DNA of 33,697 bases from Candidatus Bathyarchaeia archaeon (GCA_036396185.1 DASWLJ010000172.1:1-33697); one strand, 5' to 3'. Counted from the first letter of the stretch, positions 2,783 to 13,267 are shown. A program made the numbers and translations. Notes: a model not told the origin generated them from the letters alone.

Positions 2783-2807
2783 GGCGGGCTCGGTGGGATT
2801 CAAACCC
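2783..2807 (-). repeat. Relic copy of the 3' end of tRNA-Arg (T-stem, T-loop, acceptor 3' strand, discriminator, CC)
   Basis: ggcgggctcggtgggattcAaaccc matches 13191-13215 (ggcgggctcggtgggattcGaaccc) at 24/25 positions in the same orientation. The mismatch changes the conserved T-loop C56. No D-arm or anticodon arm follows. It sits in a convergent intergenic spacer. Confidence 0.75.
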
Positions 2808-2900
2808 TAAATGGAGACATCTCCTGAATCGCTTTCCTTTTTCCTAAAATTCGTTTAAGAAACTAAAGGTTAGTAGAAAGAAAATAAAGAAGGTTTGATT

Positions 2901-3629
2901 TTATTCGGGAGTTACTTTTTTCAGTAGATCTGGGTACCGTTTGTGAAGCAGGTATGTTGACACGATCATTATCAGCACTATTGTCACGGTTACGAAGAAG
3001 TCAGGGAAGTAGGGGGTAAGATAATTCTCCAGGTGGCCGAGGAGTAGCCCCAGCCTGCCCATGTAGGTCTGGGAGAACAGGACGCCGAAGGCTAGGTACA
3101 GTATGTACTTGCCCACGGAGTTCGCGCTCTTTAGGGGCCCCTTCATCTCCATTGTGTAGAAGTAGTAAGTGAAGACTAACAGGACACACAGTATTACCGT
3201 AAGGTTGTAGATGAGGGCCCATATGTCCGTGGCGCTGAACACCGGGAGTATGGTGGCCCTGATCTGGTTGATGATGCCGCTGAACAGGGTGGCTCGTGTG
3301 CCTACTGCTATGCCTGCGCCTGTGGCTATGGTGATGGGGATCCTTGCGATGTGCACGGTATCCTTGTGGATCCTCAGGAGCATCATGAGGCCCAGTGCTA
3401 TGGAGATGAACGTAGGCCAGTTCTTCCCGGGGTCCGTCATGATCCTCGGGACGATGGTCCTGAAGATGTAGTCCGTGGAGACCACCACGGAGAGGCCTAT
3501 AGCGCAGCCTACGAAGGCGTGCTCGGCGAAGGCGAACCAGGGGTTGTCCACGCCGGACAGTATCATGTACAGGCCGAAGGTCGTCAGCGTGCTGAGGATG
3601 AGCACGGCCCAGGTGTAAATGTCAGCCAT
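2901..3629 (-). CDS. Polytopic membrane protein (about 7 TM), 4th gene of the four-gene membrane operon
   Basis: ORF 2901..3629, 242 aa, hydrophobic throughout. Its ATG directly abuts the upstream stop (TAGATG at 3627-3632). I recognise no family motif. Confidence 0.7.
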   Translation of the reverse strand: MADIYTWAVLILSTLTTFGLYMILSGVDNPWFAFAEHAFVGCAIGLSVVVSTDYIFRTIVPRIMTDPGKNWPTFISIALGLMMLLRIHKDTVHIARIPITIATGAGIAVGTRATLFSGIINQIRATILPVFSATDIWALIYNLTVILCVLLVFTYYFYTMEMKGPLKSANSVGKYILYLAFGVLFSQTYMGRLGLLLGHLENYLTPYFPDFFVTVTIVLIMIVSTYLLHKRYPDLLKKVTPE

Positions 3630-4502
3630 CTACTTGACCTCCTTGAGGTTTCTCGTGTACCCGTAGTACCCTATGTTGCCAAGGATCATGAGGAATATGA
3701 GGAAGAACTGTATAATGCTGAAAGCGTCCATCTGCGTCAGCGCGAAGCCGGGGTAGTCCGCGAGGAACTGGTACTCCGCGGCCCCGCGTATGCTGGGTAC
3801 GATGGCGGCGTAGTTGCCCGCGTTGTACTCTACCTTGGCTCCCGCGACCATGACGCCGATCATGGATTGCATCACCGGGGTGCCGTACTCCAGGTAGAAG
3901 TACCTCATGAAGTCGCCTGCGCCGTCGTCGGAGTCGAAGCTCAGCACTAGGTCCACGTCCCTTGCCTCCATGATCCCGTTAGAGTTCAGGAACTGCGTGA
4001 CGTCAACCCCGTACCAGTCGTTGTTTCCAAGGGAGCCCCTCAAGTCGGCTGAGAGGGCCGCGACCCATTTGAACAACCCGGGGTAGTAGCCCATGTTTAT
4101 GTAGTCGACGCCGTACTTCTTTCCCCGTATATCGAAGTAGGGGTAGTCGCTGTACCCCGCCATCAGCTCTCCGTTGTTGGCAATGATCTCCTCCAGCATT
4201 ATAGGGGCCTGGTCGGCTGTCGCTGTGAATATCACCTTGACCCCCGGCTTCTCGAATATGTGGGCGATCATTGAGTTGCACGCCCCCTTCAGCTCGTTGT
4301 AGCCTGATGCTGTGATGCAGAAGTTTATTATCACGATGTCTCCGGGCTCAAGGCTGTCAATCATGTTGTAGGCTGCCCTCACCTCGGGGCTCACCTTCAG
4401 CGGAAGCCCGATGGGGAACAGCAGCATGATCGCCGTTATTATGAAGACTGCGCTGTAGTAGATCCTCCGGTCGATGGTCGCTATAGCCTTAATTACAGAC
4501 AT
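3630..4502 (-). CDS. Bitopic membrane protein (N-terminal TM, ~230 aa central domain, C-terminal TM), paralog of 5178..5969
   Basis: ORF 3630..4511 begins with GTG at 4511. I prefer the ATG at 4502 (MSVIKAIA...) because GGAGG lies about 10 nt upstream of it. The stop of the upstream gene is at 4508-4510. Confidence 0.7.
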   Translation of the reverse strand: MSVIKAIATIDRRIYYSAVFIITAIMLLFPIGLPLKVSPEVRAAYNMIDSLEPGDIVIINFCITASGYNELKGACNSMIAHIFEKPGVKVIFTATADQAPIMLEEIIANNGELMAGYSDYPYFDIRGKKYGVDYINMGYYPGLFKWVAALSADLRGSLGNNDWYGVDVTQFLNSNGIMEARDVDLVLSFDSDDGAGDFMRYFYLEYGTPVMQSMIGVMVAGAKVEYNAGNYAAIVPSIRGAAEYQFLADYPGFALTQMDAFSIIQFFLIFLMILGNIGYYGYTRNLKEVK

Positions 4503-4507
4503 GCTTT

Positions 4508-5164
4508 TCACTCCTCCCTCTTGACCACTCTCTCTACGAGCCCCACGAGGGCCAGCTCCTGACCCATCATGAGGCGGATCGCCAGCACTACTGCGCCGAC
4601 GGCAAGGCTCACGCTGAACACCCTGGTCGCGGCCATGGCGACGTAGTTCTCAAGGTACGTCGACACTGGCACGGCCCAGGGGATCAGCAGCTCGCCCAGG
4701 GGGGCCTGCTTGAGTAGCACGAACAGCGCGCCCACTGTGAGCAGGCCGGACTCGAAGCTGTTAACCCTGAAGGCGCGGGCACCAGCCGAGGTCAGGTAGA
4801 ACACAAGTATGGCGTATATGGTGGAGTCGCCGGGCAGGACGAATGCGTACTGCAGGAACTCGAATATCACGTGCGTCTTTCCCAGTCCCAATCCCACGAT
4901 GACCATGGTCCATGAGAGGACGAGTATGAGGACCCCATAGAACCACCCTCTTCGCTTCCTCTGTATCCTCACGACCTCCCTGCGCGTGGATGTTATGAAG
5001 CCGACCCAAACGGCGAAGGCCCCGATGACCACGGACGAGTCGATGAGCCACGTCTCCAGGTTGGTGACCGCCTGGGGCACCTGGAAGAAGTAAGGCACGT
5101 AGATGATCAACGAGACGATGATCAGTAGAGCCACGTAGAACTCCTTTCTCTTAAGGAACGACAT
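4508..5164 (-). CDS. Polytopic membrane protein (about 6 TM), 2nd gene of the operon
   Basis: ORF 4508..5164, 218 aa. GAGGTGA (SD-like) lies 8-9 nt upstream of the ATG, inside the 13-nt gap after the upstream stop. Confidence 0.7.
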   Translation of the reverse strand: MSFLKRKEFYVALLIIVSLIIYVPYFFQVPQAVTNLETWLIDSSVVIGAFAVWVGFITSTRREVVRIQRKRRGWFYGVLILVLSWTMVIVGLGLGKTHVIFEFLQYAFVLPGDSTIYAILVFYLTSAGARAFRVNSFESGLLTVGALFVLLKQAPLGELLIPWAVPVSTYLENYVAMAATRVFSVSLAVGAVVLAIRLMMGQELALVGLVERVVKREE

Positions 5165-5177
5165 TCTTCATTTCACC

Positions 5178-5969
5178 TCAACTACTCAGGAAAACCTTCA
5201 CTACGTCGCTGCCGAGGGCGAGCGCCGCTGTGCCAATCACCATTATACCGATGAGCACTATTTTGACTAGGTCCTGCGTCCTGATGGTGGCCAGCTGGCC
5301 AGGGTCCTTGGATAGGTAGGCCCCGGCGGCCAACATCTCCTCCCCTATCATGACGTAGTCGGAGGACGCCGCGAGGCATGCTACGTTGGACAGGTAGTCG
5401 GCTCCGCTTATCACCATGGCGCCCACCTCGTGGCCCACCTCCGATATGTAGACGGCGGAGGCGTACTGGACGCCCACCATGATGTTCGTCGCCGGCTTCT
5501 CGCGCAGCATCATGCCGCAATAGGCCGAGGCCCACGCGAACTGCCTGCCGCTCAGGAAGGGCATGTCGTCGATGTTAAAGGACTCGGGCTTCCCCTCGAG
5601 CTTGTACTGGGTCTCAACCAGGTCCCTGGCGAGCTCCATCGTGGTGTAGCTCTCCTCGGAGCCGCCCATTGGAGCCATGAGGCGTAGATCGTTTCGGGCG
5701 CACAGCCTGGCCGTGTATGTCAACATACTCAACCCGGCAACTGTAGAGGCATTGATCCCGGATGCAGCCATCCCGCAGGAGGCTATCACCGGTTTACCGA
5801 GCTCTGTTGCTCTTCCTATGCCCTCTTCAATTGCGTCGATTGCTGGTACGCGGCGTATGTAGATCAACTTCTTGGTTCTCAGGTAGTACAATGTCATCAC
5901 TAGCGTGAACGCGAACAGCAGCAGTCCCGATAGTCTTCCTACAACTATTGGATAGATGCTAAATACCAT
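5178..5969 (-). CDS. Bitopic membrane protein (N-terminal TM, ~200 aa central domain, C-terminal TM), 1st gene of the operon
   Basis: ORF 5178..5969, 263 aa. N-terminal (IYPIVVGRLSGLLLFAFTLVMTLYYL) and C-terminal (LVKIVLIGIMVIGTAALALG) hydrophobic helices flank an alpha/beta-looking domain. Confidence 0.7.
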   Translation of the reverse strand: MVFSIYPIVVGRLSGLLLFAFTLVMTLYYLRTKKLIYIRRVPAIDAIEEGIGRATELGKPVIASCGMAASGINASTVAGLSMLTYTARLCARNDLRLMAPMGGSEESYTTMELARDLVETQYKLEGKPESFNIDDMPFLSGRQFAWASAYCGMMLREKPATNIMVGVQYASAVYISEVGHEVGAMVISGADYLSNVACLAASSDYVMIGEEMLAAGAYLSKDPGQLATIRTQDLVKIVLIGIMVIGTAALALGSDVVKVFLSS

Positions 5970-5995
5970 TGTTTATCCAGTTGTTTATTTACTAG

Positions 5996-6010
5996 TATTT
6001 ATTATAAATA
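5996..6010 (-). promoter_or_regulatory. TATA-like box for the four-gene membrane operon
   Basis: The minus strand reads TATTTATAATAAATA, centred about 33 nt upstream of the ATG at 5969, inside a 225-bp AT-rich spacer. Confidence 0.35.
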
Positions 6011-6074
6011 ATTTCTGTCGATTCGAACCAAATAGAAAAAAAGGGGACTCACAGAACAACAACAATTAACATTT

Positions 6075-6098
6075 AAAAAAAATAGATAGGCGAAAAAA
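6075..6098 (-). terminator. Oligo-T tracts downstream of pcm
   Basis: On the minus strand there is a T8 tract (6075-6082) and a T6 tract (6093-6098) 100-120 nt after the pcm stop. Archaeal termination typically uses oligo-T. Confidence 0.3.
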
Positions 6099-6194
6099 TT
6101 ACTAAAAACATCAAAGTAGCAAAAGTAAACGACACCTGATTGTCATATATAATAATTATTTATGGTTTGGCCGTAGACCGTCATCATGCTTATG

Positions 6195-6998
6195 CTATCC
6201 CCCGGATCTCGTCGCCTCGCCGACCATGGGTACAAAATTTGCCTTAACCATGTAATTCACGATGACCTCGTCGCCCCGCTTCTCTATCAGGGTGAGCACC
6301 TGGTAGTACTCTGTGCTCCCCAGGGGCAACACCATGCGGCCACCGTCCCTTAGCTGCTGCAGCAGGTAGGGGGGGACGTGGTTCACGGCGCATGTGATGA
6401 TTATAGCGTCGTAGGGCGCGTGCTCCTTCCACCCGAAGTACCCGTCGGCCCAGCTCACCTCCACGTTGTCGTACCCGAGCAGCTCCAGCCGCTTCTCGGC
6501 TCCGACGGCCAGTATCTCCCTGATCTCGACCGTGTACACCTCCTCGCTGAGCTCCGATAGCACAGCGGCCTGGTAACCCGAGCCTGTACCGATCTCGAGC
6601 ACGCGCTCGGAGCCCGTCAGGCGCAGCGACTGGGTCATCAACGCGACCACGTAGGGCGACGATATGCTCTGGCCCTCGGCTATGGGCAGCCCGTGGTCGC
6701 TGTACGCCTCCTTCTCCAGCAGGTCGTACGGGAGCGGATAATCGATGACGGGGTTCTGCTCCCCCACGTTCGCGTCGATGAGCCAGGGGCACAGGAACAG
6801 GTGCCTGGGCACCCTCCCCATGACCTCTAAGACTCTTGTGTCCGTGATGTTCTTCCTCTCGGAGAGGTACTTCACCATCTCGGCCCTGGATTCATCGAAC
6901 TTGTCGTCGCCACCCTGGTTCGCGCGGTAGTACCCGAATGCGACTAGGAAAAGCAGAAGGAGTGAGCCTAGGATTATCCTATTCTTGTTTGAGAGCAA
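6195..6998 (-). CDS. pcm: Protein-L-isoaspartate O-methyltransferase with N-terminal membrane anchor
   Basis: SAM motif I VLEIGTGSGYQAAVLSEL, GLPIAEGQSISSPYVVALM and C-terminal LRDGGRMVLPLG. The N-terminus IILGSLLLLFLVAFGYY is a hydrophobic anchor. Confidence 0.8.
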   Translation of the reverse strand: MLSNKNRIILGSLLLLFLVAFGYYRANQGGDDKFDESRAEMVKYLSERKNITDTRVLEVMGRVPRHLFLCPWLIDANVGEQNPVIDYPLPYDLLEKEAYSDHGLPIAEGQSISSPYVVALMTQSLRLTGSERVLEIGTGSGYQAAVLSELSEEVYTVEIREILAVGAEKRLELLGYDNVEVSWADGYFGWKEHAPYDAIIITCAVNHVPPYLLQQLRDGGRMVLPLGSTEYYQVLTLIEKRGDEVIVNYMVKANFVPMVGEATRSGG

Positions 6999-7143: not shown

Positions 7144-9540
7144 ATGATGGACCGCTGGTCGGTGAGGTGCGCCGGCATTTTCGCCATATCCACAGCCACG
7201 CTGATGCTTCAGGTCGCGTACACGAGGATTTTCTCGATAGCCCTCTGGCACCACTTCGTGTGGATGATCGTGAGCATAGCACTGCTCGGCTTCGCGGTCA
7301 GCGGCACGTTCATGTCGGTTCTCAGGCTCCGGCAGGAGAAGAACCTGGACATGCTGCTGGCGACCTCCTCGGCCCTCTTCTCCGCGTCCATCCTGTTCAG
7401 CTACGCCGCCTCCAACCAGATTCGCCTAGACCCGTTCACCTTCGCCTGGGACAACCTGCAGCTGCTCTACATCGGCGGGTACTACCTTCTGCTATCGATA
7501 CCGTTCTTCTTCAGCGGGCTGGCTCTGGGGCTCGCCGTCGAGGAGGCTAAGAGCCGGATCAGCAGGGTCTACTTCTCGAGCTTCATCGGCTCTGCTCTCG
7601 GCTCCGTCCTCATCTTGCCCCTCTTCGGCCCGCTGGACGGCCCCGGCGTAATAGTGTCCGTCTCCGTCATCGGGGGGGCATCAGCCATGATATTCGCGTT
7701 GAACCTGGGGAGGAGGCTCCAGACGCTTCTGCTTGGGTGGGTGCTTGTGCTGACGGTCTTCCTTCCGCTGGCCGGGGCCCTCGTACCCATAAATGTGTCC
7801 CCCTACAAGGGCCTCAACGTGGCCCTCAGGTACCCGGGCGCCAGCCTGGTGGAGACCCGCTGGAACGCGTTTTCGAGGATCGACGTGGTGAGGAGCGGCT
7901 ACGTCAGGTACGCGCCCGGTCTTAGCCTCCGGTACGGCGGCTACCTGCCCGAGCAGATCGGGGTCTTCGTGGACGGGGACGACTTGAACGCCATCACCAA
8001 GTACGACGGGGACCTGTCGTCCCTCACCTTCACTGGGTACATGCCTATGGCTCTCCCGTACCACCTGGTGGAGGAGCCGAGGGTCCTCATAGTGGACGCC
8101 GGCGGGGGCCTGGGGGTGCTGACGGCAATATATCACGGGTCAGCCAGCATCAGTGTCGTGGAGGAGAACCCAATAATAGTTGACCTTGTGAGGGGCCAGT
8201 ACGCCTCGTATTCAGGCTTCATCTACAGCGACGAAGCGGCGGATGTCTCCATATCGGATGGCAGGAGCTTCATCCAGGGCAGCAGGGAGACATACGACGC
8301 CATAGAGCTATCGATGACGGGGGGTGCCTCGGCCTCCTCGACGGGCATCTACGCCCTGTCCGAGAACTACCTCTACACGGTGGAGTCCTTCGCGAGCCTC
8401 ATCGGGCACCTGTCCGAGGACGGGTTCCTCTCCGTCTCGCGGTGGCTCCTCCCTCCCCCCAGGGAGGACGTCAGGATCGTATCCCTTGCGCTGGCCGCTC
8501 TGGAGTCCCTCGGGGTTCAGGACCCTGGGGCGCACATCGCGGTCATCCGCTCCTGGGGGACGATAAGCCTACTCGTGGGGAGAAGCCCCCTGACACAGGA
8601 GAACATAGCGTCCATCCGCTCCTTCTGCAGCGAACGGGGGTTCGACATCGTCTACGTCCCCGGCGTAAGCGCCTCCGAGGTGAACATCTACAACAGGTTC
8701 CCCCAGCCCATATACTACAACATAGTCAAGGAGCTGGTCCAGCCCGAGGAGAGGGACGCGTTCTACAGGGACTACCTCTACGACATCTCCCCCACCACGG
8801 ACGAGAGGCCCTTCTTCTTCAACTTTTTCAAGTGGGATAAGCTCGCCGAGACCTATAGGTCCCTGGAAGAGAGGTGGCAGGCCCTCATAGAGGGAGAGTA
8901 TCTGGTCCCCATCGTGCTCCTGCAGGCCCTCGTCCTATCCATTGCGCTTGTCGTGCTCCCCATGTACAGGCTGGGGGGCGCGGGGGACAAGCCCGGCCTC
9001 CTCTACTTCTTTCTAATCGGGCTTGGCTACATGTTCATAGAGATATCCACCGTCCAGAGGTTCATCTTGGTCCTGGGGAGCTCGGTCCAATCCATGGCCG
9101 CCGTCCTATTCAGCCTCCTGCTCTCGTCTGGGCTTGGCAGCCACTACTCGGGGAGGATCGAGCCGCGTAGCAGGGGCCACAGGACGGTCATACTGCTTCT
9201 GGGGGCGCTGTCCATCCTGTACGGCTTGGCCCAGCCCGTGATCCAGCTTACGCTCGGCCTTCCGTTCACCGCCCGGCTCCTCCTGTCGTTCATCATGATA
9301 TCTCCGCTGGGCTTCCTCATGGGGATGCCGTTCCCCATCGGCGTCCGAATGCACTCCGAGTCAGGCGGCTCCTTCCTCGGCTGGGCTTGGGCGGTCAACG
9401 GGTGCGCCTCGGTCCTGGGCTCGATTCTGCCGATCGCGATGGCCTTGTACTCGGGCTTCTCAATGATATACGTGTTGGCTGGGGTGCTCTATCTGCTGAA
9501 CCTAGCGCTGGTGCGTGGAGGCGGGGAGAGCCTTGAATAA
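7144..9540 (+). CDS. Large polytopic membrane protein with a central spermidine-synthase-like (class I MTase fold) domain
   Basis: 798 aa. There are about 6-7 TM segments at each end and a soluble centre with VLIVDAGGGLGVLTAIYH...VVEENP...YDAIELS. It resembles proteins annotated as fused MFS/spermidine synthase. Confidence 0.75.
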   Translation: MMDRWSVRCAGIFAISTATLMLQVAYTRIFSIALWHHFVWMIVSIALLGFAVSGTFMSVLRLRQEKNLDMLLATSSALFSASILFSYAASNQIRLDPFTFAWDNLQLLYIGGYYLLLSIPFFFSGLALGLAVEEAKSRISRVYFSSFIGSALGSVLILPLFGPLDGPGVIVSVSVIGGASAMIFALNLGRRLQTLLLGWVLVLTVFLPLAGALVPINVSPYKGLNVALRYPGASLVETRWNAFSRIDVVRSGYVRYAPGLSLRYGGYLPEQIGVFVDGDDLNAITKYDGDLSSLTFTGYMPMALPYHLVEEPRVLIVDAGGGLGVLTAIYHGSASISVVEENPIIVDLVRGQYASYSGFIYSDEAADVSISDGRSFIQGSRETYDAIELSMTGGASASSTGIYALSENYLYTVESFASLIGHLSEDGFLSVSRWLLPPPREDVRIVSLALAALESLGVQDPGAHIAVIRSWGTISLLVGRSPLTQENIASIRSFCSERGFDIVYVPGVSASEVNIYNRFPQPIYYNIVKELVQPEERDAFYRDYLYDISPTTDERPFFFNFFKWDKLAETYRSLEERWQALIEGEYLVPIVLLQALVLSIALVVLPMYRLGGAGDKPGLLYFFLIGLGYMFIEISTVQRFILVLGSSVQSMAAVLFSLLLSSGLGSHYSGRIEPRSRGHRTVILLLGALSILYGLAQPVIQLTLGLPFTARLLLSFIMISPLGFLMGMPFPIGVRMHSESGGSFLGWAWAVNGCASVLGSILPIAMALYSGFSMIYVLAGVLYLLNLALVRGGGESLE

Positions 9541-9585: not shown

Positions 9586-10737
9586 TTACTCCTCTATGAT
9601 CTCGACGTTGGCCCTGGGCACAGTGACGACGCGCCCGTCCTCCAGCTCGACCTCGATGACCCTCACCTTCGAGCCTGACTGCACCGTCTGGAGGTTGACG
9701 GGCAGGCCGGCCACCTTGGCTATCTCCCCGAAGTAGGGTGCCCTTATTATCCTCACCAGCGACCCCTGCGCCATCCCGTCGGAAAACCTCTCGTCGGACG
9801 CGGCCACGCCCTCGCCCTCACCGTAGGGAACTATGATCTCGGGCCTCAGCACTCCCGCCCTTATCTGCGTGGCCCCGTTGATGGCCGACATCCTGCCCTC
9901 CACCTCCCTGAACAGTTTAAAGGTCCGGTCGGACATGGGCAGGGCGCCGAACCCCTCTGTGGCTATCACCGTGATCTCGACGTTCTCCTCGCCGGTGATC
10001 GCGACGCCTATGTCCTCGCCCAGGATGCCTATGAGGTCCTCGACGTTCATCCCTCCGACGACGATGCCCTTAACGCCGATCTCCAAGGCCCTCTTGTACG
10101 CCGCGCTCGTGACGCCGGAGCCGCCGACTATCACCTTCCCCTTGTGCTCCGCCTTGATGTTGTCCTCCTTCAGTAGCTCGGATGGCGAAGAGACTGCTAT
10201 GGCGATCTCTCCGTGGTTCTCCCCCCCGAACCCGAATATTCCCTGTATGAAGGCGGCCTGCGTCTCCACGAGGGCCCCCTTAGCGGGTATGATCTCGACG
10301 ACCTTCCCGCGGATGTAGGAGTCGACCTCCAGGGAGATGTTGTTCTGCCTTATGATCACCTGCCCTGTCAGGCCCGATACGCTCTCCACCTTCCCAGCGA
10401 AGGGCGCGTACACGTAGTTCTTGACGAGCCCCCAGAACGCCGTGTACTTCGCCAGCATCTCCCCCTCCTCGAACTGCTCGCCCTCCTTCTTCAGCATGTA
10501 GTCGAAGACGGCCCCTGGGTCCACGTTCAGTATCTCGTCCACGTTCAGTATCTCGGCGTCCCCAGGTATCTCGGTGCGGGCGAGGGTCGTGTGGAAGTCG
10601 ACCCTGTCGCCGACCTTCACCAAGACCTCGCCCTCTATAGGCAGCACCCTCTCCTTCCTGACGGTCTCGACCTTCTTTATCTTAAGCCCCGGCGTGTATG
10701 CGTGCGCCATGCTCTTCTCAACGCCCGTCTGAGTCAT
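9586..10737 (-). CDS. Uncharacterized partner of the GlmL-like protein (barrel-sandwich-hybrid-like N-terminus, KOW-like C-terminus)
   Basis: ORF 9586..10755 starts at TTG. I prefer the ATG at 10737 (MTQTGVEK...) because GAGGGTGATGG (SD-like) precedes it, 11 nt after the upstream stop. Motifs: VLVKVGDRV, VYAPFAGKVESV, VRIIRAPYFGEIAKV. Confidence 0.65.
   Translation of the reverse strand: MTQTGVEKSMAHAYTPGLKIKKVETVRKERVLPIEGEVLVKVGDRVDFHTTLARTEIPGDAEILNVDEILNVDPGAVFDYMLKKEGEQFEEGEMLAKYTAFWGLVKNYVYAPFAGKVESVSGLTGQVIIRQNNISLEVDSYIRGKVVEIIPAKGALVETQAAFIQGIFGFGGENHGEIAIAVSSPSELLKEDNIKAEHKGKVIVGGSGVTSAAYKRALEIGVKGIVVGGMNVEDLIGILGEDIGVAITGEENVEITVIATEGFGALPMSDRTFKLFREVEGRMSAINGATQIRAGVLRPEIIVPYGEGEGVAASDERFSDGMAQGSLVRIIRAPYFGEIAKVAGLPVNLQTVQSGSKVRVIEVELEDGRVVTVPRANVEIIEE
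10520..10555. repeat. Perfect 2 x 18 bp in-frame tandem duplication
   Basis: tccacgttcagtatctcg occurs twice back to back and encodes EILNVD-EILNVD in the 9586..10737 gene. Confidence 0.95.
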
Positions 10738-10747
10738 GCCATCACCC

Positions 10748-12583
10748 TCATTCAAGGTCGTACAGCCCCAGGCTTCTGTTCCACTCCAGGAGCTTGCTCA
10801 TCCTCTCCCGGGGGGCCTCAGGGATGACCAGCGGCCTCCCCCTGGCGTCCAGGATCAGGCCCGCCTCGCCTCCGTGAGCCTTGCCCTTCAGGGGCTTCCC
10901 CGGCCCCTCGCCGACGTCCATGCCTCTGGCGGGCTCCACCTCGATCTCCGCCACCTCCCCGACGCCCAGGCCGATCCTCTTGATCTCCCCGAACCTCATG
11001 GTTTCCCTCAGCGCCGTGCCGTCGGGCATCGCTATCTTGACTTCCATGGCCTCCGCTCCCTCCCTGGACTGCCCCTTCGGCGCGACGACGGTGCCCAGGT
11101 GGACGAGGCAGTCCTTGTCGAATATCTGCCACGCCGCCTTAGAGTCCACGGTGGAGAGCACCCCGAGGTGGGGCATCATGAACACGCTGTCCTGGAACAG
11201 CCTCGTTACCCCCTGTGGCTGGAACGCGTCGGTCAGGATGATGAGGGTCTGCACGCGTTTGGGCGCGTGTGAGAGGAGCCCCCCCGTGCCGCAGATAACT
11301 GGGAATCTTATCATGTCGATGTACGTGTCCTCCAGGCCCTGGTCCAGCATGTCCCCCACGGTCCTCTCCACGTTAACCCCCTTAAGCCTCGTCGCTATGG
11401 TCTTGTGGTGCTCGAGCCCGAGGCGCAGCGCCTCCCTGGCCACCGCGTGCTCGATCACCAGGTCGTTGATTGTCTGGGGGATCGTGGTGGGCCTTATCAT
11501 CTTGTTCTTTATCTCGGACTGCAGCTCGCCCACGTTCTTCTCGAAGGGCAGCCACCGCATAATGTTGCTGATCCCTGTCTCCTTGCACACGTTGGAGATG
11601 CTGTAGCTCATACCCAGGTTCGCACTCACGCTCCTCACGAACCGCTTCTCGTAGATGGAGTACACGTTGGTGGTGGCCCCGCCTAGGCCCACGCCCAGGA
11701 CGTTGGTGCCCAGCTCGCTGGCTATCAGCTGCATGGCTATGCCCTCCCCGGCTGGCGTAGGCATGATGTCCACGTCCGTCCACTTCATCAGCTTGAGGTA
11801 GCCCGGGGCGTGGCTCATAACGTGCTCCATGAACAGCTCGTGGACGGCCCGCCTGGCGTGCTCTATCCTCTCCTCATTCAGGGTCGGACGGATGTTGTCT
11901 ATTATGGATAGGGCGAAGTCCTTCTCGAACAGCTTCCGTATGTGGTCCTGGACATCTTTGTTCCCGGCGTAGATCATGGGCAGGCTGTACCCCTCGCCCA
12001 GCCTGGGCTTTGGCTTCGCCGCGTAGAATATCTCGGCCATGGCGGCTACGTGCTTCACAGTGCCTCCGTCTGTGCCGCCCGCCAGGAGTATCATGTCGGG
12101 TCTGAGGTTCTTGATCCTGGATATCTTCTCGTGGGCCACCCTCCCGTCGTCCATGGTGAGTATGTCCATGACTATGGAGCCGGCCCCCAGGACGGCGCGG
12201 TTCGCGCTCGCCGCCGTGATCTCCTTCACCACCCCGCCGACCATCATCTGGAGTCCGCCGCCAGCGCTGCTCGTCGTGCAGTATAGGTCTACCCCCTTTT
12301 CTCCATCGTATGGGCGCAGGATGTTGTCGTTGGCGTCGGAGATCATCTTGTGGCCGGTTAGCTCCTCTATCTCTCGGACGGCGTTAAGGACCCCCATCGT
12401 AACGTCTTCGTACGGCTTCTCCACCGTTGTGGGCGCCTCACCGCTGATGATGTACCGCCACTCGTTCCCCTTTTTAGCGAAGAACCTCGCCTTTGTGGTA
12501 GTGCTGCCCACATCTGTCACAAGTATGTATCTCATCTCTCTTGATGGGTTACCCTGGGCTTCGTTAATCGTCATGTGCTTCAT
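10748..12583 (-). CDS. GlmL/MutL-family (ASKHA fold) protein, long form, no mutase partner nearby
   Basis: 611 aa. N-terminal phosphate-1-like motif ILVTDVGSTTTKA, then LLAGGTDGG and GVGLGGATTNV. It resembles the glutamate mutase accessory protein family but has a ~110 aa C-terminal extension. An AT-rich TATA-like element lies 25-38 nt upstream of 12583. Confidence 0.7.
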   Translation of the reverse strand: MKHMTINEAQGNPSREMRYILVTDVGSTTTKARFFAKKGNEWRYIISGEAPTTVEKPYEDVTMGVLNAVREIEELTGHKMISDANDNILRPYDGEKGVDLYCTTSSAGGGLQMMVGGVVKEITAASANRAVLGAGSIVMDILTMDDGRVAHEKISRIKNLRPDMILLAGGTDGGTVKHVAAMAEIFYAAKPKPRLGEGYSLPMIYAGNKDVQDHIRKLFEKDFALSIIDNIRPTLNEERIEHARRAVHELFMEHVMSHAPGYLKLMKWTDVDIMPTPAGEGIAMQLIASELGTNVLGVGLGGATTNVYSIYEKRFVRSVSANLGMSYSISNVCKETGISNIMRWLPFEKNVGELQSEIKNKMIRPTTIPQTINDLVIEHAVAREALRLGLEHHKTIATRLKGVNVERTVGDMLDQGLEDTYIDMIRFPVICGTGGLLSHAPKRVQTLIILTDAFQPQGVTRLFQDSVFMMPHLGVLSTVDSKAAWQIFDKDCLVHLGTVVAPKGQSREGAEAMEVKIAMPDGTALRETMRFGEIKRIGLGVGEVAEIEVEPARGMDVGEGPGKPLKGKAHGGEAGLILDARGRPLVIPEAPRERMSKLLEWNRSLGLYDLE

Positions 12584-13142: not shown

Positions 13143-13192
13143 TGATCCTCGAGGTATCGTTTTCCAGGCTTGAAACATCGCCCAGCAATAGG

Positions 13193-13267
13193 CGGGCTCG
13201 GTGGGATTCGAACCCACGACCTCCGGCTCCGCAGGCCAGAATCATATCCTGGCTAGACTACGAGCCC
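13193..13267 (-). tRNA. tRNA-Arg (anticodon GCG)
   Basis: Reverse complement: GGGCTCG TA GTCT AGCCAGGATA TGAT T CTGGC CTGCGGA GCCGG AGGTC GTGGG TTCGAAT CCCAC CGAGCCC G. The cloverleaf folds, it is 75 nt long, and CCA is not encoded (CCT follows). Confidence 0.9.

Follow-up and report, generated by a model that had tools for sequence, protein, structure and literature searches.

A four-gene membrane cassette with a DUF6754 subunit in a Bathyarchaeia genome, and a GlmL-type ATPase pair that probably belongs to the same system

Here we analysed a stretch of DNA from Candidatus Bathyarchaeia archaeon (GCA_036396185.1, DASWLJ010000172.1:1-33697), the whole of which, 33,697 nucleotides in length, is called the window in what follows. 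Between positions 5969 and 2901 of its minus strand lie four genes for membrane proteins, which we numbered g1 to g4 in the order of transcription (Table 1). An original prediction, made from the sequence of the window alone, had described them as four co-oriented open reading frames (ORFs) behind a 225-bp AT-rich spacer with a TATA-like box and with junctions typical of translational coupling. The ORF scan and our reading of the DNA bore out this description, every one of the junctions matching when it was re-read: g1 and g2 are separated by TGA-13 nt-ATG with the motif GAGGTGA spanning the stop codon; the stop of g2 (4510-4508) and a GGAGG motif precede the ATG of g3 at 4502; and g3 and g4 meet in TAGATG at 3632-3627 with AGGAGG upstream. 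The G+C content of the spacer is 0.284 against 0.593 in the window, and its TATA-like box (TTTATAAT, at about 6008-6001) stands about 35 nt ahead of the ATG of g1. Judging from this sequence the spacer is probably the promoter of the operon and would give a short leader ahead of g1, and the T-rich tract past the stop codon of g4 is probably its archaeal oligo-T terminator. Archaeal operons typically have a first gene with a short leader and internal genes with Shine-Dalgarno motifs. Regarding the two possible starts of g3, most of its homologs have 289-290 amino acids, which is the length obtained from the ATG at 4502. Because g1, g3 and g4, the genes with which homologs were sought, all have some at E = 1e-150 or better, and because the synteny described below extends across phyla, we consider g1 to g4 to be real genes rather than chance ORFs.

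The four products alternate between proteins with a soluble domain held by transmembrane (TM) helices at both ends and proteins that are mostly embedded in the membrane, as had been predicted (TM-domain-TM for g1 and g3, about six TM segments for g2 and about seven for g4). The AlphaFold2 (AF2) model of g1, with a predicted local distance difference test score (pLDDT) of 93 and a predicted template-modelling score (pTM) of 0.87, comprises TM1 at about residues 13-31, a Rossmann-like alpha/beta domain at 42-220 and a C-terminal TM helix at 223-251. That of g3 (pLDDT 90, pTM 0.86) follows the same layout, with a TM helix at 15-31, a Rossmann-like domain at 42-250 and a C-terminal TM helix at 256-292. 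Hydropathy and lysine/arginine (K/R) profiles give about six TM segments and a cytoplasmic N-terminus for g2 and about seven TM segments for g4, in agreement with the predicted topologies. Foldseek searches of the Protein Data Bank (PDB) returned generic matches for both modelled proteins, the best being E = 5.6e-3 for g1 (Rossmann-type folds of the Moco-carrier/LOG-like and USP kinds) and E = 2.6e-3 for g3 (GT-B halves, RCK domains and dehydrogenases). As all these matches have E > 1e-3, membership of g1 or g3 in the SLOG/LOG, GT-B or RCK groups is unsupported.

The positive-inside rule predicts opposite orientations for the two Rossmann-like domains. In g1 the domain lies on the K/R-rich side in 69 out of 72 orthologs, so that its short N-terminus is predicted to be outside and its alpha/beta domain, which is large and strongly conserved, to be cytoplasmic. 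The termini of g3 are K/R-rich in 72 of 72 orthologs, which predicts a cytoplasmic N-terminus and an extracytoplasmic domain. Each orientation agrees with evidence of an independent kind. Ahead of TM1, bacterial g1 homologs have what looks like a cleavable signal peptide and also an extra domain, consistent with a cytoplasmic position of the domain that follows TM1; and in a metagenome-assembled genome (MAG) of Planctomycetota (locus L025) the g2 ortholog (1255-2598, 447 amino acids) is interrupted between TM3 and TM4 by a g3-type domain, in a loop predicted to face outward, consistent with an outer position of the g3 domain. This insert corresponds to positions 34-206 of the g3 hidden Markov model (E = 2e-43), and the locus retains a g3 gene of its own downstream of the fusion. 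Such a fusion also speaks for g2 and g3 being in contact when they function.

The extra domain of the g1 homologs varies greatly, the N-terminal ectodomain spanning from 0 to more than 1000 amino acids on a constant module made of the TM helices and the cytoplasmic domain, and archaeal g1 proteins, that of the window included, have none. In one homolog (P0244) the ectodomain is a BamB/PQQ-like beta-propeller, matched in a PDB search with E of about 7e-5 over about 330 residues. By eye, the ectodomain of P0246 also looks propeller-like, its own PDB matches not being significant, P0372 seems to contain a series of beta-sandwich-like modules, and in P0361 there seems to be one like FN3.

Conserved polar residues are found within the membrane-embedded parts of three of the subunits. 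They include E36 (100% conserved, within a FAEH motif), N29, Q122 and R192 in g4, R181 and N176 in g2, and N279 (100%) and H268 (96%, being Q in the window) in g3. The g2 proteins share in addition a conserved RAFRAR loop. R181 of g2 counts among the invariant positions, as do R53, E56 and D233 of g1.

Among the four families only that of g1 has been catalogued. The g1 protein matches Pfam DUF6754 (PF20539) with E = 1.6e-59 and 201.6 bits against a cut-off of 27, over model positions 17-252 of 257, being a near full-length member, and the domain is present in all g1 homologs retrieved. There was no match for g2, g3 or g4 in Pfam, NCBIfam, PADLOC or PHROGs. The original prediction had found no family to name for any of the four, which holds for g2 to g4 and not for g1; and the profile search that it proposed placed g1 alone, in DUF6754, and none of the proteins in a characterised transporter or complex family. 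DUF6754 itself is a catalogue entry that describes no function, structure or partners, and its definition covers neither the company of g2 to g4 nor the orientation or the link with an ATPase described here; in the library of papers that was searched, DUF6754 and PF20539 are not mentioned. Searching 1.84 billion representative proteins with the profile yielded 2,616 clusters at E <= 1e-3 and 1,214 at E <= 1e-30, and the family is therefore real but modest in size. Its carriers are almost all uncultured organisms (Bathyarchaeia, Poribacteria, Zixibacteria, WOR-3, Eisenbacteria and anaerobic Bacillota), and tblastn gave no match to the cassette genes in plasmids or phages.

Other searches were equally negative. 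Profiles of all four families had no match among PDB sequences, a pooled Pfam scan of 96 g2 and g4 orthologs gave scattered noise only, and matches in PADLOC were at noise level (E = 0.016-0.025) with none in PHROGs, so that neither collection offers a defence or phage family for g1 to g4. There is no Walker motif in g1 to g4 and no conserved cysteine in any of them. Regarding transporters, the sole hint in the NCBIfam and Pfam scans was a 42-residue stretch of uracil permease scoring 19.8 bits against a cut-off of 477. The TRAP, TTT and other secondary transporter families (DctQ/DctM, TctA/B) gave no significant match in Pfam or NCBIfam, orthologs included; ABC_tran, EcfT and S-component models matched neither g1 to g4 nor the g2 and g4 orthologs; and ABC_tran occurs in only 3 of 89 upstream neighbours of cassettes. 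That the four proteins bear no known transporter signature had been stated beforehand, and the Pfam and NCBIfam scans agree.

The same prediction had proposed that the operon arose from a duplicated module of one bitopic and one polytopic protein, giving a complex of 2+2 pseudo-symmetry, with g1 and g3 as paralogs. The likeness between g1 and g3 in architecture stands: in the AF2 models 15 secondary-structure elements correspond one to one and in the same order, and both proteins share a G-x-x-V-I...A-S-G-x-N motif after the first strand and a [YF]-L-x-x-x-P-G motif before a C-terminal helix with a conserved glycine. Their sequence signal is marginal, with a BLASTP E value of 0.61 and collinear hhalign matches whose significance depends on the alignment (P = 0.0018 for the N-terminal part, 0.01 for the C-terminal part and 0.035 after trimming of columns); with block shuffling, 2 of 40 nulls scored as high as the real alignment. 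The similarity of g2 to g4 is weak, with a BLASTP E of 1.0 and hhalign P values of 0.001-0.004, and none of 40 block-shuffled nulls reached the score, but the match is not collinear, g2 TM1-3 aligning with g4 TM4-6. Since Rossmann-like folds are common, a shared fold class is weak evidence of paralogy, and since the domains of g1 and g3 are predicted on opposite faces of the membrane any symmetry would be inverted rather than a parallel 2+2. Paralogy of g1 with g3 and of g2 with g4 is hence plausible but unproven, and the duplicated module with its 2+2 pseudo-symmetry is not well supported.

The four genes are conserved as a unit. A scan using one genome per species found at least 566 relatives, the best 80 of which, all of them MAGs, were examined. 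These 80 span Bathyarchaeia, Bacillota, Poribacteria, Zixibacteria, WOR-3, Eisenbacteria, Armatimonadota, Cloacimonadota, Latescibacterota, Sumerlaeota, Planctomycetota and others. The cassette ranges from Bathyarchaeia to about 15 bacterial phyla, and the relatives that carry a name are MAGs of Bathyarchaeia or Bathyarchaeota. Downstream of each of three distant g1 homologs (36-55% identical), whose neighbourhoods are unrelated, stand three genes without annotation and of corresponding sizes. When ORFs were chained downstream of g1 at 85 loci, 71 full cassettes were recovered with g1, g2, g3 and g4 in order and of the expected sizes, most of the loci lacking a full cassette being those at contig ends. 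Several loci contain tandem arrays of two or three complete cassettes (L017, L031-L034, L036, L037 and L060; for example, at 1855-12264 in L032 and 1657-8970 in L036). Whether the order of the four genes is conserved across archaeal genomes had been posed as a check of the original prediction; it recurs well beyond the archaea, in many bacterial phyla and in unrelated neighbourhoods. Taken with the tandem cassettes and the fusion of g2 with a g3 domain, this conserved order supports the predicted hetero-oligomeric membrane complex, which g1 to g4 very probably encode; that all four subunits physically assemble is what we infer from it. The four-gene system fits no known kind of system.

Outside the cassette little is shared among loci. 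According to a Pfam census and all-against-all clustering of about 70 loci, the flanks are otherwise unrelated apart from synteny that is specific to lineages (for example, sulfatase and xylose-isomerase-like genes in Poribacteria), and the sole neighbours recurring across phyla are a GlmL-like gene pair and a gene for a small protein. One Bacillota locus (L051) has a thiamine pyrophosphate riboswitch at 1749-1861, about 4 kb upstream of the cassette and probably unrelated to it.

In the window this gene pair, which we call A and B, lies on the same strand as the cassette and 3.6 kb upstream of it. The product of A is a GlmL/MutL-family ATPase of the acetate and sugar kinase/Hsc70/actin (ASKHA) fold, matching PF13941 over the whole model (positions 1-450; E = 6.6e-112, 375 bits against a cut-off of 27) and keeping the phosphate-1 (DVGSTTTK) and phosphate-2 (GGTDGG) motifs, with a C-terminal extension of about 120 amino acids. 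It remains below the NCBIfam cut-offs for GlmL equivalogs, with 205 bits against 475 for NF040745 and 204.5 against 600 for NF040744, and mutase genes were found neither among the window ORFs scanned nor in the scans of neighbour families or among cluster representatives. The product of B has an N-terminal barrel-sandwich hybrid domain (RnfC_N/NqrA_N/lipoyl-like), a central alpha/beta region and a C-terminal KOW-like barrel, and the RnfC_N/NqrA_N-type domain was recognised in 9 of 11 B members. A role of B as a biotin or lipoyl carrier is ruled out because the lysine of the hairpin is not conserved (K, R or T). B directly follows A in nearly all loci. Our search of the literature on PF13941 and GlmL found nothing relevant.

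Evidence for the linkage of A/B with the cassette comes from both directions. Starting from the cassette, the pair adjoins it, upstream or downstream, at 11 separate loci, which represent about 10 phyla (Clostridia, Zixibacteria, Eisenbacteria, Sumerlaeota, Latescibacterota, Desulfuromonadaceae, Vulcanimicrobiota, Pseudomonadota and unclassified bacteria), these pairs being 39-56% identical to A/B of the window and A alone 48-56%. Two archaeal relatives (L168 and L169) have A/B convergent with the cassette and within about 5 kb of it, with different intervening genes. Starting from B, a metagenome scan found cassette genes in 30 of 80 loci, and in 25 of the 52 loci whose flanks total 3 kb or more; all the gaps measured 4 kb or less with a median of about 0.5 kb, a range that includes the 3.6-kb gap of the window. 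As a rough estimate, an unrelated pair of genes would be expected within 10 kb in less than 1% of genomes. Furthermore, three tandem cassettes follow the A/B genes in L032 and two in L036 (B being complete and only the 3' end of A lying inside the locus), an arrangement resembling diversified substrate modules that share one energising module. The A/B pair probably belongs to the same system as the cassette. The original prediction had stated that there is no ATPase, which is correct inside the four genes, but an ASKHA ATPase pair is linked to them in many lineages and lies close upstream here.

The small protein, of about 75-145 amino acids, has a hydrophobic N-terminal part and a tail rich in lysine and glutamate, often ending in GWRRFLPF, and matches no Pfam family. 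At 27 of 80 loci its gene lies on the upstream side of A, and it also occurs beside several cassettes that lack A/B (examples are L093 7659-8045, L097 7615-8052, L006 9054-9308 and L045 5590-5934). Neither tblastn nor a profile search of the six frames found it in the window. At six metagenome loci B is followed by a gene for a protein of about 300 amino acids with a DUF483 match (E = 1e-6; for example, L095 9531-10415, L099 4881-5831 and L133 1651-2580), which may be a further accessory of the ATPase pair or an alternative module of it.

Table 1. Positions of the cassette genes, the ATPase pair and neighbouring features in the window.
Feature	Position	Strand	Remarks
g1	5178..5969	-	263 aa; ORF scan
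g2	4508..5164	-	218 aa; ORF scan
g3	3630..4502	-	290 aa from ATG; alternative GTG at 4511 (293 aa); ORF scan
g4	2901..3629	-	242 aa; ORF scan
AT-rich spacer, predicted archaeal promoter	5970..6194	-	sequence reading; putative role
T-rich tract past g4 stop, predicted oligo-T terminator	2868..2900	-	sequence reading; putative role
Protein-L-isoaspartate O-methyltransferase (PCMT)	6195..6998	-	267 aa
Polytopic protein	7144..9540	+	798 aa
B, partner of A	9586..10755	-	389 aa; overlaps A by 8 nt
A, GlmL/MutL-family ASKHA-fold ATPase	10748..12583	-	611 aa; Pfam PF13941
tRNA-Arg 3'-end copy	2783..2807	-	24/25 identical to 13191-13215; direct repeat
tRNA-Arg gene	13191-13267		

Both the cassette and A/B lie within a segment of 10.4 kb bounded by the tRNA-Arg repeat, which also holds a signal-anchored PCMT gene, the gene for the 798-aa polytopic protein and a 119-aa ORF. 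The match between the repeat copies confirms that the operon lies inside a repeat-bounded segment, as had been noticed from the sequence. Reading this segment as a mobile element is unsupported: there is no integrase among the window ORFs scanned, the difference in G+C content is small (0.581 against 0.603), no homologs were found in plasmids or phages, and the junction is old. This last point follows from a relative whose g4 is 95% identical (L166), which has a diverged remnant of the repeat at the same position, so that the junction, if it is an integration scar, must be an old one. The relative lacks the GNAT gene that follows the repeat copy in the window, and an archaeal-type release factor (aRF1/eRF1 domains) is encoded nearby on its contig. 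The PCMT carries a hydrophobic signal-anchor (MLSNKNRIILGSLLLLFLVAFGYY...) at its N-terminus, which is unusual for a repair enzyme that is normally cytosolic, and L166 has a PCMT of the same length. The 798-aa protein, encoded between the ATPase pair and the cassette, has a central spermidine/spermine-synthase-like domain by a weak match (E of about 1e-3 to 2e-5), and a homolog is adjacent in L166.

Taking together the results on the cassette and on A/B, the reading that we prefer, to which we would give a probability of roughly 0.35, is that of an ATPase-assisted transmembrane transport complex in which A/B docks on the inner domain of g1. We favour it because of the polar residues buried in the membrane, the diversified tandem cassettes beside one ATPase pair and the binding-type outer domains. 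According to this scheme g1 to g4 would be co-transcribed and would assemble into one integral membrane complex, whose membrane core would be formed by g2 and g4 with their buried polar residues (E36, N29 and Q122 in g4; R181 and N176 in g2), while the Rossmann-like domains of g3 and g1 would stand on the outer and the cytoplasmic face, respectively, and bacterial g1 proteins would add variable outward-facing binding domains. The outer domains would capture a substrate that the complex would then move across the membrane, and the cytoplasmic DUF6754 domain would be the site of docking or hand-over for the soluble A/B, which would power or gate the cycle. Both the transport activity and the contact between A/B and g1 are putative.

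Several observations weigh against a transport complex of this kind. To our knowledge no transporter energised by an ASKHA protein has been described, and neither the sequence searches with g1 to g4 nor the fold searches with g1 and g3 revealed likeness to a characterised transporter or machine. At 33 loci the vicinity of the cassette or the ATPase pair showed no riboswitch or other clue to a ligand. The variable ectodomains of g1 would suit a receptor or an anchor equally well. A/B occurs within 6 kb in only about 13% of the cassette loci, and about half of the A/B loci with good flanks have no cassette, a sparse co-location from which it follows that the link between them may be facultative or metabolic instead of physical.

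This last possibility is the basis of a different explanation, in which the cassette would be a self-sufficient secondary transporter driven by an ion gradient and A/B a two-subunit ATP-dependent enzyme that processes what is imported, the link between them being metabolic. We regard it as a possible though tentative alternative. The conserved buried acidic, basic and polar residues of g2, g3 and g4 fit ion coupling, the paralogous tandem cassettes fit substrate diversification, and most cassette loci have no adjoining A/B pair. Genes for transporters often adjoin those for catabolic enzymes, and two-subunit ASKHA enzymes do exist, the A/B subunits of hydantoinase/oxoprolinase being an example. 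Nevertheless, the neighbour scans showed no other catabolic genes recurring with either the pair or the cassette, A is closest to the GlmL-type accessory proteins and not to kinases or hydantoinases, and the large conserved cytoplasmic domain of g1 would be left unexplained if nothing docks on it.

Alternatively, the proteins could form a machine of the envelope or the cell surface that anchors variable outer domains and couples them to an ATPase of the actin/Hsp70 fold, serving surface organisation or the assembly or secretion of polymers, by analogy with MreB-RodZ-MreCD or assemblies of the PilMNO type. The very wide range of ectodomains borne by the constant g1 module, with one BamB/PQQ-like propeller among them, would be understandable in such a machine, as would the ASKHA fold of A and the recurrence, in many loci, of the small hydrophobic protein with its charged tail; a mixture of bitopic and polytopic proteins is also reminiscent of MreC, MreD and RodZ. 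We consider this unlikely, given that the archaeal versions keep the entire cassette in spite of having no ectodomain, that no genes for cell wall, glycans or secretion recur near cassettes in the neighbour scans, and that two or three tandem cassettes would be unusual for a core machine of the envelope.

Receptors typically place a variable ectodomain on a conserved cytoplasmic module, and Rossmann-like ligand-binding domains on both faces of the membrane would suit a transmembrane sensor, in which the outer and g3 domains detect a signal that the DUF6754 domain relays, possibly to the ATPase pair. Such a sensor appears improbable to us: no known output domain (kinase, cyclase or helix-turn-helix) is found in or near the cassette, four obligate subunits with two strongly conserved polytopic ones among them would be unusual, and the archaeal form does without the variable domain. 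Finally, a divergent redox complex like Rnf or Nqr, with B equivalent to NqrA/RnfC, g3 to NqrC/RnfG, g2 and g4 to NqrD/E and g1 to NqrF, would account for the barrel-sandwich domain of B and for a superficial parallel in subunit sizes and topologies, but it is hardly credible and we take it to be ruled out, as g1 to g4 show no conserved cysteine, no flavin, Fe-S or other cofactor motif, no match to an Rnf/Nqr membrane subunit or a flavin mononucleotide-binding family, and no subunit like NqrB/RnfD.

A bolder version of the ATPase-assisted transport complex would see in these proteins a new class of machine, with two bitopic proteins that may be inverted distant paralogs, Rossmann-like domains on both faces of the membrane, two polytopic proteins and an ASKHA rather than a P-loop ATPase as its driver. 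We hold this to be doubtful; if true, ATP would be coupled to transport or force in a manner not recognised before, in Bathyarchaeia and in many uncultured bacterial phyla alike. Independently of it, DUF6754 becomes one subunit of a fixed four-protein unit, and what was a bare domain entry becomes a system of four to seven components. Should the link with the ATPase be physical, no membrane machine before this one would have relied on this branch of the actin/Hsp70/sugar-kinase superfamily, and a role of GlmL-like proteins outside B12 enzymology would be suggested; should the complex be a transporter, it would extend by a new family what abundant sediment and symbiont microbes have for transport.

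Placing the system among known ones requires comparing its parts separately. With the GlmL/MutL accessory proteins of B12-dependent glutamate and ornithine mutases the likeness lies in A, which aligns over the whole GlmL core and keeps the ASKHA motifs. The presumed target of GlmL-type proteins is a cofactor-binding subunit of Rossmann-like fold, and a domain of such a fold is present in g1. The differences are the additional C-terminus of A and its company, which consists of a barrel-sandwich/KOW partner and a membrane cassette, with no mutase subunits found. Na+-NQR and Rnf resemble the system in having a soluble barrel-sandwich subunit, bitopic proteins whose domains lie on either face and two six-TM subunits of about 200 amino acids, but the membrane subunits do not match in sequence and the conserved cysteines are missing, so that the analogy is architectural only. 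ECF and ABC importers come to mind because one A/B set is followed by two or three tandem cassettes in L032 and L036 and because the outer alpha/beta domains could bind substrate; they differ by their P-loop ATPase, the candidate ATPase here being of the ASKHA fold, and by the ABC_tran, EcfT and S-component signatures, which g1 to g4 do not show. MreB-MreC-MreD-RodZ and PilM-PilN-PilO, lastly, have no sequence relationship with the system described here, A being GlmL-like and not actin-like, and MreC, RodZ and PilN/O are folded differently from the Rossmann-like domains of g1 and g3; what they have in common with it is an ASKHA-fold protein genomically linked to bitopic and small polytopic membrane proteins.

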